Shown here: piece by piece, positions 3,001 through 9,000 of the stretch
Layout of the letters: each line of letters begins with the position of its first letter
Position numbering within the stretch: position 1 is the first letter of the stretch
From: a virus
Taxonomy: Duplodnaviria; Heunggongvirae; Uroviricota; Caudoviricetes
Reading direction: 5' to 3' (one strand)
DNA length: 41,681 bases
IMG/VR virus record: IMGVR_UViG_2606217106_000020
Program-made: the position numbers

Positions 3001-6000
3001 ATCTCTTTCGTCCATGGATTAAGGCCGTACTGGTTAGCGACGATCAGTAGTGCGATGAACTGGGCATCGCTGGCATCACCTTTAAATGCTGTCTGGCGAA
3101 GAGTGGTAATCAGTTCCTGTGGGTCGACAGAATCCATGCCGACACGTTCAGCCAGCTTCCCTGCCAGCGTTGCGAGTGCTGTACTCATCCGTTTTATACC
3201 TCTGAATCAATATTAATTTGGTGACGGGCGATGGTTTCAGCCATGTAGCGGATGTGTTCTGCCATGCGTTCCTGAAAATCGACATCGTCATCAAATGCAC
3301 GGGAAATAGCTTTTTTGCTGGCCCCGTGACGTTGCAGATTATCGATGCATAGCGATTCAAACAGGTGTTGGGGCAGACCTTTTTCCAGGTCGTCTGCCAG
3401 CTCAGCTTCAGTTTCTTCACGGGCAATTTGCTGGTAGTGTCGTGCCCATGACTGCTCTTCAATGCGATCGGGGATAAGCCAGGCATTCATGATTTATCAC
3501 CTCCGAAATTTTCAAGCCTGTTGGCAATCATGATGGCGATATCAGGGATTGCTGGCGCTGTGGCTATACATGCGGGGTTGGCGCACAAACCATAGACGGC
3601 TGCAATCACGAGCTGTCTTTTCCAGTCGAGAATTTCTGGTTCTGAATCAGCCTTATCGTCGGGCGCATTGTTGCCCTGAGCATTCCGGGCAACTGCCTCG
3701 AGTTCATGAGTTGTATCAGCGGAACTTTCCAGGACATCCGCTTGTGCTGAGTTCTCTTCAGCAGATGTGCCGTTTTCTCCAAAAATTTCAGCGTAAGTTT
3801 CATCTCCTATTACCGGACCGCAGTCAGGGCAGTTGCCCCCACCAGTCTGAGCACAGACGCGGCAGGATTTTTCCAGCTCCGGTTGTGCTACTGGCTCTGG
3901 TTGTTGCTCTGCTGGTCCGTTTTGTTGCGTATCCGGGCTGTTTTGTTCCGCTTCTGGCTCATTTTGTTCCACTTTGGATTGATTCTGGTCTTCAGTGTCG
4001 CGAGTCTGGATCCCCTTCACCCACTTCGGGTCGGTTGGGTCGCTGATACCTTCAACGAATTCTCCGCGAGAAGCCGCCAGTAATTTGTCGGCATCGACTG
4101 GATTTTTTGGGGGGATGTTTTCCCTGGCTTTATTGAGTTCCTCCCTCAGTTCCTGGTATTTCGTTTCTACAGATGAGACATTTTCCAGTGATTGCGTGTC
4201 CTCATTATGTTTAACTGGAATTTCTTCCACTGATTCAGGCGCTGCCTGTTCATTAGCCATTGTGTCCGATGTTTGTTGCTTTTCTTCATCGCCATGTTTT
4301 CCTTCTGCTGTTCCGCGCTGCGGCATCGGTGCTGATGAGCGACCGCAGGCAATTTCCACGATTTCCGGATCCGGGTTAGCGTGATCGGTTTCGGTCAACA
4401 CTTTGTTGAGATATTCAGTCACGCGTGCCGGGATGGCCTCAATGCCGATTGGTGCTTCTTTCACGGAAGCCACCACAATGGCGCGGGAATAATCCAGCCC
4501 ACCGGGCATGGCGATAAATTTGTCGCGAAAAACAGAAAAGGGCGGCTTATTCTCTGACACGATTTCTTCAACGCGTTTTGCGTGTGCTGGGTGCAGGTTA
4601 TAAATATCCACATCCATTGAACGGGCCAGAACGCCGGTGGCTACATCTCGTGCGAGTGATGTCTTATCATGTTTGAATCCTTCACCACGATCGGTAATAT
4701 TTCCGCCGCCAGCGTTAGCACCGGAAGGCGTACGGGTAATGCCTGAAACATAATTTCCGTTCTGCCATTCTTTTGTCAGCAGGCCCTGATCAAGGTAGTC
4801 AGTTTTCATCCAGGTGGAAATGAACTTGTCGAATTCAGCCGGGCTGATGCGATGATTTGCAGAGTGGGGGAATGCTTTCCCTACAGATTCAGCCAGGCGG
4901 CTAAGGTGATAATTCGTCAGCTTATCCAGCTCTGGATGTGAACGCACAGCAGTAAGCAGGCTCTGAAGGTAACTATCTTCTGTGTCCATCTCCAGACGGA
5001 TCACATTATTACGTTGTTCTGGTGTGGCGTGATGCCGGTATTTTCCATCTTTATCCTTGCTAAAGAAGAAGAGGTGAAGGAAACGATGGGTAAGACTGAG
5101 AGTGGCGACGGGAATTTCACAGTCAATACAGTCATCGTCGCTGTCTGTGGATTCGATTTTCTCCGCATTACCCGGAACAGCTCCGTCTGGGTCATCGTTG
5201 CCACCGTCAGCCGTTGTGGCATCTTCACCGTTGATGTTGTCATCGGAGGGTATAGCCATCATGGTGATGCCATCGTTACCGCCTTTTTCATAGCGATTAC
5301 AGAATTCGGTATCAAACACTCCTTCCGGTGGAAGGTCATTTACGACGGGCAAATGAACGCGAACAGGTTTTTTAAAGTCATCTTCATCGTAGCCCGCATC
5401 GTCAATCGCAACAGCACCACGAGAGATTGCAATGGATAATTTTTTCGCCTCAGCCCAGTAAAAACCGCCTTTAATGCCGAGGCGTTTTCTTACCTTGTCA
5501 TTTTTTGCTTCGTAATACAGTGGGTAAACTTGTTTATCAGTGCTCATTGTGTTTAAACCTCTGACTGGATAAAAATAAGCGCCCTTTTTGGTAGCCTGTG
5601 CTGCCGGATTTTTTATTTCAGTGAAATGCTTTCTTGTTTGCGGTTTTGGTGCTGGCCTGAGTCTGTTCGTGCTGGCATTCAGGGCAGTCACAGGTGCATT
5701 CACCATTCTCTCTGATAAGCTGAAGAGCCATTGCCAGTTCCAGTATTGCCTGTGGTTTAATTGTACTGTCGACAATTTCAGATGCTGCATGAATATATGG
5801 GCTGGAAGTTTCGCAATACAAACCGAAGGAAACAAAACGACTGTCCTTATATTCGTTAATTGCGATTTCTGTTAGCTCTGAAAATGAATAGACATAATCT
5901 ATCTTGTGTTTTTTGCATATTTCATTTATGCGTGCTGCGATTTCTTTAAGCTCATTTATTGCGTCAGGGCAGGATTCTGAGAACACTTCGTTCTGTGCGA

Positions 6001-9000
6001 GTTCTTTCATTTTACGTTTCCAGTGTTGATAACTAATGTGAATTGTTGTTTCAGTGTGGATTTAGAGAGCGTATTTATTGCTCATCACCATGATTCGGCC
6101 TTTACAGGCAAACCATCGCGTCCCAGGAAAACTTTAATCATGCAGTCGGTAATGCATGTTTTTGTCGTGAAGTTACGAATATAGAGCTTTCTCTTTTCAA
6201 TATTGTTTGCTGAAGCGATATATGTGCGGCCTTCATGAAGAACATAATCGCCAGGTGTCACGCACTGACGTGGTATTTCATCAGTCCCGAAGTGATGAGC
6301 AATCATAATTATCTCCATTTTCACAAATGAACTTTGTTGATGCGGTGCCTGGTGCCTCCAGGTGACGTTAACCAGTTAACAATTAACGCCGGGTCAGGGG
6401 ATGATGACTTGCCGTGACATCCTGTCGGTTTAACTGTTCCGCGTGCGCTTAGCCGCATTCACCGCATCACAAAATTCACTTTAAAAAAGGGCGGACATCA
6501 GCCAGCAATAAACTGATGCCGCCAATGACTACACACAGCAATGTTGTTATTCACAACCGGAAGCGCACGGTCGAAGAAAATTTAACGATGCCGTACAGAT
6601 ATACGAGCTTTGCCGTGCGCTTTCGTGTTATGCCCTGGCTTTTCAGGGGAATATCTGTTCAGTAAACTGAGATTGCCGGATTCACACCCGTGTCCGGCGC
6701 ACGAACTCCACCTGACCCGTGGAGAACTCCTTAACTACAACCCCGTAAGGAGGGTGAATTTATGACATAAGAAGAAAAGGCAATGTTTCTGATGCGACTG
6801 GCTGTTGATACCTACAACACACAATTCAGGGAAGAAAAAATACCTCAAAAGGCAGTTCCTGCCGCGGTAGATAGGGGCGGTGCTATTGCCGTATTTTACG
6901 ACGCATTTGAATCCTTTTTTGATGAAAAAACTCGCAGCTGTTAGCGACTTCGGAACATCGAGTAATAAATAACGTCCATTACGGTTCTTAAACAACAATC
7001 AGTGGGCTTGATGTTGTGCTTTTCAAGCTCACTTGCCATCACTTCCATTATTCTTGCACTTACACGAATTATTTGGTGGCTGTAAGCGACGCAACTATCG
7101 CTGATATTGCTGTTTATTTCTATTGCTTCATTTTCACCATTAGCACTAACTTCAGATGTGCTGTTTTCATTTTCCTGTATCAGTGCTGCTTCCGCCATCC
7201 TGATGCGTCCCAGCGTTGAGGAATTTGGGCTAAGTTGATAAACCTGTCGGGCATCTTCCAGAAGCAGGGCGATAATGTGCTTCAGTTCTGTTTCGTTCAT
7301 GGTTAATTCCGTGAGTTGCGATTTATTAATATCAGGAGGTCAGTTCTTTAAGTTTCTGAACCGCTTTATTCATTTCATCCATGCAGTCGATGAACTCGTC
7401 CAGTTTAAGCTGCATTTTTCCGGCGGCCTGAAGAATTTCAAGTTTTAAGGGCGCGAGTTTTTTGTTGAATACATCATCTTCCTGACGTTTTTTCTCCGCA
7501 ATTTCGGCGGCTTTCAGCAATTCTTCTGCCTGTTTTCTGAGTGTTTCTGGTGAAGGTGAAACTACTTTGAGGTTATTCATTTCAGATTCCTGTTGTTGCA
7601 GAATTAATTTATTACATTCTCTGCGCAAGCGTTTCATTGCAGATTCGCACTTCTTACAATAAATGGCTCTCCCGTCACGTTTGCTGGCATCTGAATAAAA
7701 ATCATCGACTGATTTTGTCTGCCCGCATCTGGTGCATAATTTTGACTGAAGGTCCTTAATGATGGTCACGTTTCCTTCCCGTTTGGGATATCCATATTTT
7801 TTGTGGCGGAAAAAGGTTACTCCGTTACCAGAACCTTCTTTTCTGACCTTAAATACAATGATGCTTTCCCGTTTATCGATAAAATCGATGAGCTGGTTTC
7901 TCTCCTTGCCTGACAGTTCGGCAAATGTCTTAACTTTTTTAGTAACTTCCGTAAGTCGAACGCCATCAGGCATTTTTTCAACGAAGTTTTTAATCTCTGC
8001 AAGTGGACGCCATAATTTTTGCGGCAAAACTGAAGGCGTTGTCATTTATCACCTCGCTGTTATTGTTCCTGATTTGCGATAGCCTGCCGCGTAAATGGCT
8101 ACGTTTGGAAGACATACACCAGTTTCTGGTTGCTTATGTCCAAACTCATTCGCGTACACAATGGCCGCTCGCTCCAGATTGCGTCTGTATTCTTTCTGTT
8201 GCCAGATCACGTCCTGTGCCATGAACTTAATTGGCTTAGCGTCTTCTATGCGCTCAGGCGTTTCGTGAGTACCTTTAGCCTGAATCTGCGCTCTGCTTAG
8301 AGTAGGGCGGTGTAATACTTCTGAACTTATTGCTTCTTCGCGGGCCAGCACGCCGTTAGCTAATGCCTTTGCCTTTAAACGCTCACGACGACGAGAACGT
8401 GAATTGCCTTTGAACTGAGTTCTGCGTGTCATATAGACCTCCTGATGAACTTTGGTGGTGTGGTGGGAGGGAGACCCATTTCGACCTGTTTCGGCCTACT
8501 TCAATTCGGCAATAGTCCTGCAGGCCTCGCCGCTTTACGTGCGACATATTCCCGTCCATGAACCCTTCACCACACCCCAAAGTTCACTTTGGTTATTGCG
8601 CTTTGTCAGCGCCGTAGATTCATATTCGAATCGTTGTATATTCACCGCCCTGGTGAGTAGAGCGTCCTGCTGATGGGTGAACTTTATCGGAATGATAAAT
8701 TGATGGCAATAGCAAAATGATAAATTCTTTTGGTTTTCAAATATCGTATTGATTCTTATGGTGTTTTATTTTGTTGTAGGAATTCGACAGGATAAATAAA
8801 GAGATTTGAGGTAGATCTGAATTGCGATGTTTAGTGAGTTGTATCTATTTATTTTTCAACAAATACAATTGGTTATGTGTTTTTAGGTGGAGGGATCGAG
8901 AGGAAAAGAAAACCCGGCGCTGAGGCCGGGCTAGATTTTAAAGTATTTATCTTTTAGAGATGTAGATGTAAAATTTTTCGCCTTTGAAAATTTTTTGTCA

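Follow-up and report, generated by a model that had tools for sequence, protein, structure and literature searches.

A predicted KilS/DicF-type small RNA and leader module directly upstream of kil in the leftward early operon of a lambdoid prophage

Overview

At 5618-8045 lie those genes of a lambdoid prophage's leftward early (PL) operon that are nearest to N, transcribed from the minus strand. Most of this interval is a new copy of a known module beside three early ORFs of 237, 119 and 130 aa, since a KilS/DicF-type small RNA (sRNA) module, recognized by homology, lies directly upstream of kil (Table 1). Positions are those of the window, i.e. the whole 41,681-nucleotide stretch of IMG/VR virus record IMGVR_UViG_2606217106_000020. 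The explanation that very probably accounts for the interval as a whole joins this sRNA-leader-kil module, a proposed mechanism of its operation, and a decayed gene on the opposite strand.

Table 1. Features of the interval, listed from the N-proximal end
Feature	Position	Strand	Description and evidence
ORF237	7332..8045	-	237 aa, first gene past N; phrog_2539, E = 5e-128
ORF119	6941..7300	-	119 aa; phrog_2982, E = 9e-71
Decayed copy of 69-aa gene (phrog_2605)	6762..6944	+	opposite strand; E = 1.3e-28
Conserved hairpin-rich stretch	6640..6745	.	strand unassigned; common to Qin-type modules, from alignments
18-bp processing stem of sRNA precursor (predicted)	6552..6632	-	5' strand 6613-6632, 3' strand 6552-6570; covariation
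Candidate KilS-type (DicF-family) sRNA	~6485-6575	-	alignment to K-12 KilS, Rfam DicF model; 5' end approximate
Structured leader, STnc100-like core	6320..6484	-	165 nt, from sRNA terminator to kil ribosome-binding site
kil (kilR type)	6085..6306	-	73 aa, FtsZ / cell division inhibitor; NF008465, phrog_294
ORF130	5618..6010	-	130 aa; phrog_2016, E = 2e-51

Organization of the interval

An earlier sequence-only reading placed four genes here, of 237, 119, 73 and 130 aa, and its coordinates hold for all four minus strand ORFs; its judgement that none was recognisable does not, as the 73-aa ORF is Kil by profile match. The protein scores 161.1 bits against NCBIfam NF008465 (FtsZ inhibitor protein; cutoff 92) over residues 1-73 of 73, matches phrog_294 (Kil) with E = 2e-36, and is identical to E. 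coli K-12 KilR at 69 of 73 residues; RefSeq labels it kilR in an identical prophage. With a score over the curated cutoff and full-length similarity, it is by sequence a member of the Kil/KilR family. Translation may begin at ATG 6306 (73 aa) or at GTG 6324 (79 aa), in either case ending at 6085, and the Shine-Dalgarno sequence is GGAG (6313-6316).

Upstream of kil the same reading had described a non-coding 430-bp gap at 6325-6760 with no ORF of at least 60 aa. No such ORF lies inside these limits, and the sole ORF that touches them, an 87-aa frame with a TTG start (6735-6998, minus strand) that overlaps the last 26 bases, has no family match in profile searches. An ORF-free run of 430 bp is not unusual, being within chance expectation. 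The stretch without called genes is larger, however, extending over 634 bp (6307-6940), and it stands out in an operon whose other junctions measure 3-74 bp. It is left unannotated by RefSeq in the 100% identical prophage of E. coli 23CRST047. Far from being anonymous, 6307-6940 is homologous to the known KilS/DicF sRNA-plus-leader module, found as the sieB-kilS-kilR intergenic module of Rac and the ydfC-dicF-dicB intergenic module of Qin. An eight-way alignment of the window with Rac, Qin and related phages spans 6300-6760, and window positions 6326-6525 match 4624 of 5426 complete E. coli genomes. The hairpins reported in the gap are real, with fold z-scores of -3.6 to -4.0 and a terminator hairpin at 6490-6523 followed by a T-run; of the terminator or small RNA for which transcript mapping had been suggested, both are apparently present. 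Homology shows a known three-part arrangement: a putative processing stem, a KilS-type Hfq sRNA with its terminator, and a structured leader.

As had also been proposed, this is a variable accessory stretch of the leftward early operon, located between N and the recombination genes and mosaic across the prophages compared; its gene content varies among PhiR5_2, phiSTEC1589, Rac, Qin-like and Kluyvera-type prophages.

The small RNA and its processing

The candidate sRNA appears to be KilS-type by position, seed and flanks. In the multiple alignment it is homologous in position to K-12 KilS (b4833), for which the K-12 annotation gives the corresponding place in the kilR 5' region, and the flanking stem and leader are homologous as well. 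The seed (6527-6544, ACAUUGCUGUGUGUAGUC) is identical over 18 nt to that of K-12 KilS (ACATTGCTGTGTGTAGTC). The Rac KilS/kilR system (Bar et al. 2021, PMC8175672) shares with the window the upstream stem, the design of terminator plus U-run and the downstream leader, and its kilR is 95% identical. It differs in the terminator loop and upper stem, where the window has CAGUUUAUUGCUGG and the loop of Rac is longer and rich in U; in the sequence on the 5' side of the processing stem, which in the window is Qin-like and not Rac-like; and in the host element, Rac being a cryptic remnant whereas the window comes from an N-carrying lambdoid prophage with lambda-like early recombination genes. KilS is a discrete Hfq-dependent RNA whose expression has been demonstrated in K-12 by northern blot, with yncL as its RIL-seq partner (PMC8175672); the RNA of the window is its predicted counterpart.

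The order of stem, sRNA, terminator, leader and division inhibitor is also that of dicBF in Qin, where leader and stem are near-identical in sequence to those of the window; Qin has, however, a ~115-nt insertion ahead of the sRNA that gives a different 5' seed, and DicB rather than Kil as the inhibitor downstream. Against the Rfam DicF model (RF00039) the sRNA scores 43.3 bits (E = 1.9e-7), under the gathering score of 48; K-12 KilS scores 39.1 bits and true DicF 75-77 (76.7). Like DicF it ends in a terminator stem-loop and U-run (hairpin 6490-6523, -20.5 kcal/mol; six U at 6484-6489), and in 15 of 15 folded sRNA variants a hairpin precedes a U-run although the stem sequences differ. A further mark of DicF is a loop in the 3' region that complements the ribosome-binding site of ftsZ (PMC5069750). 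This loop (CAGUUUUACUCCG) is absent from the window, which has CAGUUUAUUGCUGG in its place, a terminator loop unlike those of both DicF and K-12 KilS. Predicted duplexes of the sRNA with ftsZ are no better than those of shuffled sequences, in a crude test with little power either way, which misses the genuine pairing of DicF with ftsZ as well. By the same test the predicted duplex of the seed with the yncL 5' UTR (-18.8 kcal/mol), which is identical for the window and K-12 KilS seeds, is equalled by 15 of 500 shuffles. A promoter scan of the gap found no sigma-70-like promoter on the strand of the sRNA; by eye, a -10-like TAAATT in the window is without the TG extension that is seen in the Rac sequence. 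The assignment of the sRNA's 5' end, of any separate promoter and of RNase III cleavage follows analogy with Rac and Qin.

The 18-bp stem upstream of the sRNA encloses a variable ~42-nt apical loop, folds in the window, Qin and Rac alike, and is probably an RNase III site. Pairing holds in 98.1% of cells over 86 distinct sequences, compared with 25-42% when the partner strand is slid, and in four pairs both sides have changed (49 cells), a figure reached by none of 500 shuffles; many of the single changes are U-G to C-G, compatible only with a minus-strand RNA. Processing by RNase III as well as RNase E is documented for Qin dicBF (10.1101/2023.04.14.536235, PMC5069750), and the published RNase III-dependent DicF ends map inside both predicted duplexes, one on each side of the sRNA. 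The 190-nt species (10.1101/2023.04.14.536235) has its 5' end in the 3' strand of the stem, and the end of the 72-nt species (PMC5069750) falls within the closing helix of the leader. It has to be considered that the conserved non-coding blocks are DNA-level recombination linkers for module exchange in which RNA structure is incidental, as they sit exactly at the mosaic joints, amid sRNA seeds, terminator loops, downstream genes and opposite-strand genes that are all variable. This is improbable in view of the compensatory and strand-specific G-U changes in both duplexes, which DNA-level homology does not predict, and of the RNase III-dependent RNA ends that map to the blocks in Qin.

The proposed mechanism of the sRNA-leader-kil module draws largely on these relatives. 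In the lysogen, the sRNA terminator would stop leftward transcription short of the toxic kil gene, while the sRNA may still accumulate from read-in transcripts or a weak promoter of its own. Upon induction, N-modified RNA polymerase would pass the terminator, and RNase III would cut both flanking duplexes to free the sRNA and to leave behind a kil mRNA whose 5' leader is short. The seed would then pair with host mRNAs such as yncL, not ftsZ. The opposite strand provides a place for a gene whose expression runs counter to PL: sieB in Rac, and here a phrog_2605 gene that is now inactivated.

The opposite-strand gene

A possible small plus-strand ORF of 52 aa had been described here at about 6782-6940, preceded by AGGAGG. 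The ORF is present, although its limits are 6783-6944 and its length 53 aa, and the AGGAGG element (6748-6753) likewise exists but lies 29 nt from ATG 6783; it serves instead the ancestral in-frame ATG at 6762, 8 nt beyond it. The frame is no intact new gene but a disrupted copy of the phrog_2605 gene, which two lesions, one nonsense and one frameshift, have inactivated: TAA at codon 3 (6768-6770), where T6768 is C in the intact alleles, and one additional A in the A-run at 6925-6930 that shifts the frame by +1. The match begins at profile position 8. Intact 69-aa alleles are found in PhiR5_2, phiSTEC1589 and one IMG/VR contig, and Edwardsiella phage EPP-1 has an annotated 62-aa homolog (51% identity) on the other strand from the rdgC and repressor genes beside it; compared with these three alleles and the Edwardsiella homolog, with their conserved start MT(Q/H)EEKVMFLMRLAVDT, the window frame is not intact. 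Translation from ATG 6783 could still yield the 53-aa remnant.

The hairpin-rich stretch at 6640-6745 may serve the plus-strand gene as promoter and 5' UTR, may belong to the leftward sRNA precursor, or may do both. Its folds have z-scores of -2.6 on the plus strand and -1.4 on the minus strand, and a weak sigma-70-like pair, TTTTCA (6640-6645) and TAAACT (6663-6668), is seen by eye below the scanner threshold.

Next to the sRNA module, the phrog_2605 gene lies in the opposite-strand slot of sieB, known from Rac, lambda and P22; however, no sequence similarity between the two was detected, phrog_2605 is 69 aa as against ~160-190 aa for SieB, and the window copy is disrupted.

Flanking early genes and the question of exclusion

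ORF237 is probably a DNA-binding early gene with linkage to N. The layout predicted for it comprises an N-terminal winged helix, an inserted zinc ribbon (~residues 93-130) and long C-terminal helices; the AlphaFold2 model has a mean pLDDT of 86.9, and its best Foldseek matches are winged-helix DNA binders (RTP, PadR, BlaI) at just E = 0.07-0.5. The ribbon, with the motif CxxC...CxxC, is missing in homologs of ~198 aa and absent from most homologs. Homologs form 66 clusters across Enterobacterales, and in all of the three further prophage contexts inspected the gene begins 3-52 nt past N or an N-sized gene.

ORF119 and ORF130 are accessory genes. ORF119 has no match in Pfam or PDB, and its N-terminal ~45 residues alone are common to other small phage proteins; an exhaustive HMMER search yields 29 representatives, of which four match past the N-terminal ~60 residues, one of these being a multi-stretch match in a 2581-aa protein. 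ORF130 does carry the cysteine cluster attributed to it, as a C-terminal CxCxCxxC in a protein predicted to be helical. The cluster resembles the YnfU zinc-binding family at a sub-threshold 18 bits (cutoff 36), no similarity to YdaE or RacC was found, and the AlphaFold2 model (pLDDT 50) is unusable. Its homologs form just 22 clusters, every named one from E. coli.

The interval had been considered a plausible location for anti-restriction or exclusion genes such as lambda ral and sieB. The positional part of this comparison stands, with Rac sieB in the opposite-strand slot, but no exclusion or anti-restriction family was matched. That the interval is mainly such a locus, its effectors being the plus-strand ORF or else ORF237, ORF119 or ORF130, agrees with its correspondence to lambda ral and sieB and to Rac sieB, with an opposite-strand orientation that suits expression in the lysogen, and with a match of ORF237 to the Lar-like phrog_5558 (E = 2e-9). 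This match, however, covers only the zinc ribbon, which is also common to endonuclease VII and HNH PHROGs and is missing in most ORF237 homologs; the plus-strand gene is broken twice; and the ORFs of the interval have zero matches in PADLOC and no Ral, Lar or SieB domain in Pfam. Profile searches of the ORFs identified Kil and phrog_2605, but ORF237, ORF119 and ORF130 match PHROGs in the function unknown category (phrog_2539, phrog_2982 and phrog_2016) and no defence family. An interval devoted mainly to anti-restriction or superinfection exclusion therefore has little likelihood.

The leader of kil

The leader (fold -60.5 kcal/mol, z = -3.6) is closed by a 22-bp helix, 6460-6481 with 6325-6347, that ends ~10 nt ahead of the kil Shine-Dalgarno sequence and contains the hairpin CCUGG-AGGCA-CCAGG (6348-6362) and one 10-bp hairpin. 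Among 106 distinct modules its identity is at least 97% at most positions, a variable ~36-nt middle excepted, irrespective of whether dicB, kil or a third ORF follows; function need not be the cause of this near-invariance, which recent spread or recombination could also produce.

The leader is one of a widespread class of STnc100-like RNAs. With STnc100 (RF02076) and PasD it shares the core GGUGAAU ... UCACC-NGGAGGCACCN-GGCACC, found across Enterobacterales, and a compensatory closing helix: relative to the full STnc100 copy that the window carries at 23746-23951, four consecutive pairs are compensatory. Closing helix and hairpin covary across 105-115 elements from many Enterobacterales species, a 21-nt core (TCACCNGGAGGCACCNGGCAC) occurs in >120 stretches from many Enterobacterales genera, and the hairpin pair of the core is complementary in 115 of 115 elements. 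Along with this core and helix, the leader has an Rfam STnc100 score of 33.1 bits (E = 9e-5), under the gathering threshold of 47 (K-12 and O157 leaders, 28-35 bits), and no hairpin plus U-run at its 3' end, where the kil Shine-Dalgarno sequence and ATG come directly.

Beyond providing an RNase III site, the leader might act in cis as an STnc100/PasD-like regulatory RNA and gate the toxic gene downstream, through a bound factor or ligand, for instance, or through control of termination, Rho access or translation. Its extreme conservation ahead of different genes, the recurrent core and covarying helix, and a multi-branch architecture that exceeds the needs of a nuclease site favor such a role. 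The proposal is nevertheless doubtful: no ligand or protein partner emerged from the tests run, the STnc100 score is under the threshold, no similarity was found to the HK022 put antiterminator RNAs, and STnc100 and PasD, by description, stand alone and act in trans as sRNAs with terminators, whereas the leader is without one and runs directly into a coding gene.

Tentatively, the leader ahead of kil or dicB may be one member of a large class of structured prophage RNAs and would here act as a cis gate on toxic division-inhibitor genes. If so, the STnc100-type "sRNAs" and the leader would represent one regulatory RNA fold put to two uses.

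Prophage setting and gene order

The window is a lambdoid prophage. Over the stretch tested it is 100% identical to one carried by E. coli 23CRST047; PhiR5_2 (90% identity over 94% of 5400-8450) and phiSTEC1589-Stx1c are the closest sequenced phages. ORF calling recovered the four ORFs that a sequence-only reading had described on the minus strand, that of the leftward early operon, between N and the 686-aa gene, and bore out its claim that 6325-6760 holds no ORF of at least 60 aa, the true gene-free stretch being larger at 634 bp. A length of 430 bp without an ORF is not improbable by chance; the gene-free stretch is conspicuous because the other junctions in the operon are only 3-74 bp. 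The observation is real, yet the interval consists mostly of known kinds of element: kil, a KilS/DicF-type sRNA with its processing scaffold, an apparently dead opposite-strand moron (a small accessory gene inserted into a phage genome) and three accessory early genes.

Coordinates of the early operon, the interval and other elements of the prophage
Feature	Position	Strand	Remark
cI-type repressor	11069-11773	-	leftward early operon, listed before N
Three ORFs between N and cI	9098-11008	-	
N, 933W/H-19B type	8049-8432	-	Pfam N_peptide
ORF237	7332-8045	-	first after N
ORF119	6941-7300	-	second after N
Gene-free stretch	6307-6940	-	third after N
Plus-strand ORF	6783-6944	+	53 aa
Predicted upstream stem	6613-6632 with 6552-6570	-	18 bp
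KilS-type sRNA	~6485-6575	-	seed at 6527-6544
Leader	6320-6484	-	
kil (73-aa ORF)	6085-6306	-	fourth after N
ORF130	5618-6010	-	fifth after N
lambda Red set (exo, bet, gam) and 686-aa RecE-family gene	1700-5547	-	in the operon after ORF130: 686-aa gene, then gam, bet; annotation from locus L004
sok match	16783-16957	+	110 bits
isrK / C4 antisense RNA / c4-a1b1 target set	18821-19019 and 20406-20604	+	two tandem-like copies
STnc100 sRNA	23746-23951	+	full length, 165 bits

The Pfam match of the RecE-family gene is confined to the N-terminal Exonuc_VIII region. The three ORFs between N and cI encode a 348-aa eukaryotic-like Ser/Thr kinase with PADLOC mad6 and PD-T4-6 matches (down to 6e-50), a 153-aa protein that RefSeq places in the RuvC family, and a 113-aa DUF3024 protein matching the candidate defence model PDC-S43 (6e-42); to judge from these matches the trio looks like a defence cluster expressed in the lysogen. 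The sok antitoxin RNA match points to a type I toxin-antitoxin locus of the hok/sok type within the prophage, and the isrK, C4 and c4-a1b1 matches, over the Rfam gathering scores in both copies, represent P1/P7-type antirepressor immunity RNA.

The kil gene and its sRNA module

The earlier statement that none of the four ORFs is recognizable fails for the 73-aa ORF, which by homology is Kil: with NCBIfam NF008465 (FtsZ inhibitor protein) it reaches 161 bits where the cutoff is 92, it matches phrog_294 at E = 2e-36 and it is identical to K-12 KilR at 69 of 73 residues.

The gap upstream of it is, as judged from sequence, a KilS/DicF module. An Rfam scan run at a permissive setting, below gathering scores, gave two minus-strand matches, a DicF-like one at 6489-6537 (E = 1.9e-7; 43.3 bits against a gathering score of 48) and an STnc100-like one at 6292-6499 (33.1 bits, E = 9e-5), and a terminator scan placed a hairpin and T-run at the same site as the former. 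By megablast, 6326-6525 finds a match in 4624 of the 5426 complete E. coli genomes (about 85%), directly upstream of dicB or kilR in the matched records and usually with no annotation beneath; RefSeq annotates no RNA there in the sampled records. K-12 annotation has dicF in the cryptic prophage Qin and the ncRNA kilS (b4833) upstream of kilR in Rac, and in an 8-way alignment ~6300-6760 is homologous throughout to the Qin ydfC-dicB intergenic region and ~6300-6640 to the Rac sieB-kilR region, the Qin module differing by a ~115-nt insertion immediately before DicF. RIL-seq led to the prediction of KilS, an Hfq-dependent sRNA within the kilR 5' UTR that has yncL as partner, and a northern blot verified it (PMC8175672). 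Since K-12 KilS itself scores 39.1 bits on the Rfam DicF model, below threshold (DicF, 76.7), KilS-type RNAs are a sub-threshold branch of the DicF family, which is why the sRNA was missed in annotation. A search for a DicF-like RNA in the long gap of phage EPP-1 (Edwardsiella) found none.

Rac-type modules (e.g. locus L008, ~2040-2080, minus strand) and a third module type have interleaved complementary segments at the place of window ~6640-6670, read by eye as ACCACC..CCCGG..GGUGGU..CCGGG against ACCAC..CCUG..GUGGU..CAGG. The pattern resembles an H-type pseudoknot whose changes are compensatory; in the window-type module two separate hairpins occupy that place.

Swappable seeds and putative targets

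The 106 distinct modules taken from IMG/VR contain 42 variants of the sRNA, mosaics of several unrelated seeds at the 5' end and several terminator loops. The variants were folded one by one, as a MAFFT alignment of 20 of them misaligned the 3' stem strands and RNAalifold therefore failed; all 15 folded variants show a GC-rich hairpin followed by a U-run, with terminator stems that differ compensatorily (e.g. GGCGG/CCGCC and GGUGG/CCACC). DicF and KilS thus turn out, on these comparisons, to be two alleles of one mosaic sRNA family, with swappable seeds in a constant processing scaffold.

The 18-nt seed of the window sRNA, ACAUUGCUGUGUGUAGUC, is identical to that of K-12 KilS. Its predicted duplex with the yncL 5' UTR around -40 (-18.8 kcal/mol) was equalled by 15 of 500 shuffles, so that this seed-only test lends modest support to yncL pairing. 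Predicted ftsZ pairing is at chance level in the same crude test, which also overlooks the genuine DicF-ftsZ pairing and so carries little weight, and full-length RNAduplex runs against ftsZ and yncL were not discriminating.

Duplexes flanking the sRNA

In the upstream stem, which window, Qin and Rac all form in their minimum-energy folds, 98.1% of alignment cells pair (86 distinct sequences), against 25-42% when the partner is slid as a control. Four pairs are changed on both sides, in 49 cells, a figure reached by none of 500 shuffles, and many changes are from U-G to C-G, which are neutral in the minus-strand RNA only. On the other side of the sRNA, the leader adopts a predicted multi-branch fold (-60.5 kcal/mol, z = -3.6) whose 22-bp closing helix, AAGUGAAUUUUGUGAUGCGGUG with CACCGCAUCAACAAAGUUCAUUU (6460-6481 with 6325-6347), ends ~10 nt before the kil GGAG.

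The 5' end of the 190-nt form of DicF requires RNase III (10.1101/2023.04.14.536235), and the 3' end of the 72-nt form is produced by it (PMC5069750). Simple arithmetic on K-12 coordinates puts the 5' end of the 190-nt form within the 3' strand of the upstream stem and the 3' end of the 72-nt form within the 5' strand of the closing helix, so both predicted duplexes are likely RNase III sites; for the window we infer this from near-identical sequence.

The leader and the STnc100-like class

Apart from a variable ~36-nt middle, the leader is conserved at 97% or more at most positions across the 106 modules, a value somewhat inflated because the set was picked by an exact 18-mer from the leader itself. 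It is conserved regardless of the gene that follows, dicB in 77 modules, kil in about 20 and a third ORF in 9. The conserved third ORF (IMG/VR loci L094, L097, L120, L011, L039, L059, L069, L072 and L079) starts MLNVAIENQNGWNYSAPAPHKTGAG, extends past the 420-nt extract and is neither dicB nor kil.

No ORF conservation was found in the leader: a 45-aa candidate at 6321-6458 has its frame broken in Qin and Rac by 1-2 nt indels, and invariance at its would-be synonymous sites also speaks against it. HK022 put-like antiterminator RNA, sought for the leader and upstream hairpins by blastn (word size 7, whole HK022 genome), gave chance matches only. The leader appears to belong to an STnc100-like RNA class. 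Set against the window's own STnc100 copy, it shows compensatory differences in four successive pairs at the top of the closing helix; more than 120 stretches from many Enterobacterales genera contain the 21-nt core TCACCNGGAGGCACCNGGCAC, its two N positions being complementary in all 115 distinct elements; and among the 105 elements that have GGUGAA upstream, covariation is seen at helix pairs 5 and 6 (U-A 59, C-G 39; G-C 78, A-U 16). Together these features argue that this class of structured RNAs is real and widespread and that the leader is a member lacking the terminator. A crude terminator scan 3' of the cores was set aside, having overlooked the terminator of the window's STnc100. That copy, which has its core fold in common with the kil leader, lies 3' of a Q-like antiterminator ORF and 5' of a 636-aa ORF (24173-26083).

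The opposite-strand gene and the accessory early genes

The small plus-strand ORF of the sequence-only reading exists, with slightly different bounds (53 aa, not 52 aa at ~6782-6940), and the AGGAGG said to precede it is present at 6748-6753; this motif lies 29 nt from ATG 6783 and 8 nt from an in-frame ATG at 6762, whose next codons are ACA TAA. The ORF has a phrog_2605 match (E = 1.3e-28) that begins at profile position 8. In PhiR5_2, phiSTEC1589 and one IMG/VR contig the gene is intact and encodes 69 aa from the ATG equivalent to 6762, behind the Shine-Dalgarno sequence. A 62-aa homolog with 51% identity and the N-terminus MTHEEKVMFLMRLAVDT is annotated in EPP-1, where the adjacent rdgC and repressor genes lie on the other strand. 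Compared with the intact alleles, the window has C to T at 6768, turning codon 3 from CAA to TAA, and one additional A in the run 6925-6930, through which the final 13 residues are replaced. The simplest reading of the window copy is a pseudogene. In other prophages the opposite-strand slot holds unrelated genes, among them sieB in K-12 Rac.

PADLOC gave no match for ORF237, ORF119 or ORF130, and PDB sequence searches with the three returned nothing meaningful. ORF237 belongs to a family of 66 clusters of hypothetical proteins from Enterobacterales prophages and directly follows N or an N-sized gene in the three other prophage contexts examined. Its AlphaFold2 model (pLDDT 86.9) combines a winged helix at the N-terminus with a zinc ribbon and long helices, and its best PDB matches by Foldseek are winged-helix DNA binders, none reaching E = 0.001. 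The ribbon is an insertion absent from ~198-aa homologs, and alone explains the Lar-like, endonuclease VII and HNH PHROG matches. ORF119 has only an N-terminal module of ~45 residues (MNETELKHVIALLLEDARRVQQLxPNAGTxARI) in common with most of 29 representative relatives; the same residues stand at the N-terminus of many small phage proteins with unrelated C-termini (P0090-P0117), which suggests a common N-terminal module or an intragenic recombination joint. A relationship to YdfA/YdaF (DUF1391) was rejected, the alignment showing no real similarity. ORF130 is confined to E. coli; its Cys cluster weakly resembles YnfU, no similarity to YdaE or RacC was found, and its AlphaFold2 model is unusable (pLDDT 50).

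Implications

Two points would go beyond existing annotation: the allelism of DicF and KilS within an invariant scaffold, and the membership of the scaffold's leader in the STnc100-like class. A prophage that keeps lambda-like early genes here carries a toxic division-inhibitor gene together with its own sRNA module. The invariant leader ties the DicF/KilS scaffold to a widespread class of RNA, and the mosaic sRNA family lends itself, as a natural system, to studying how phages give an sRNA new targets.
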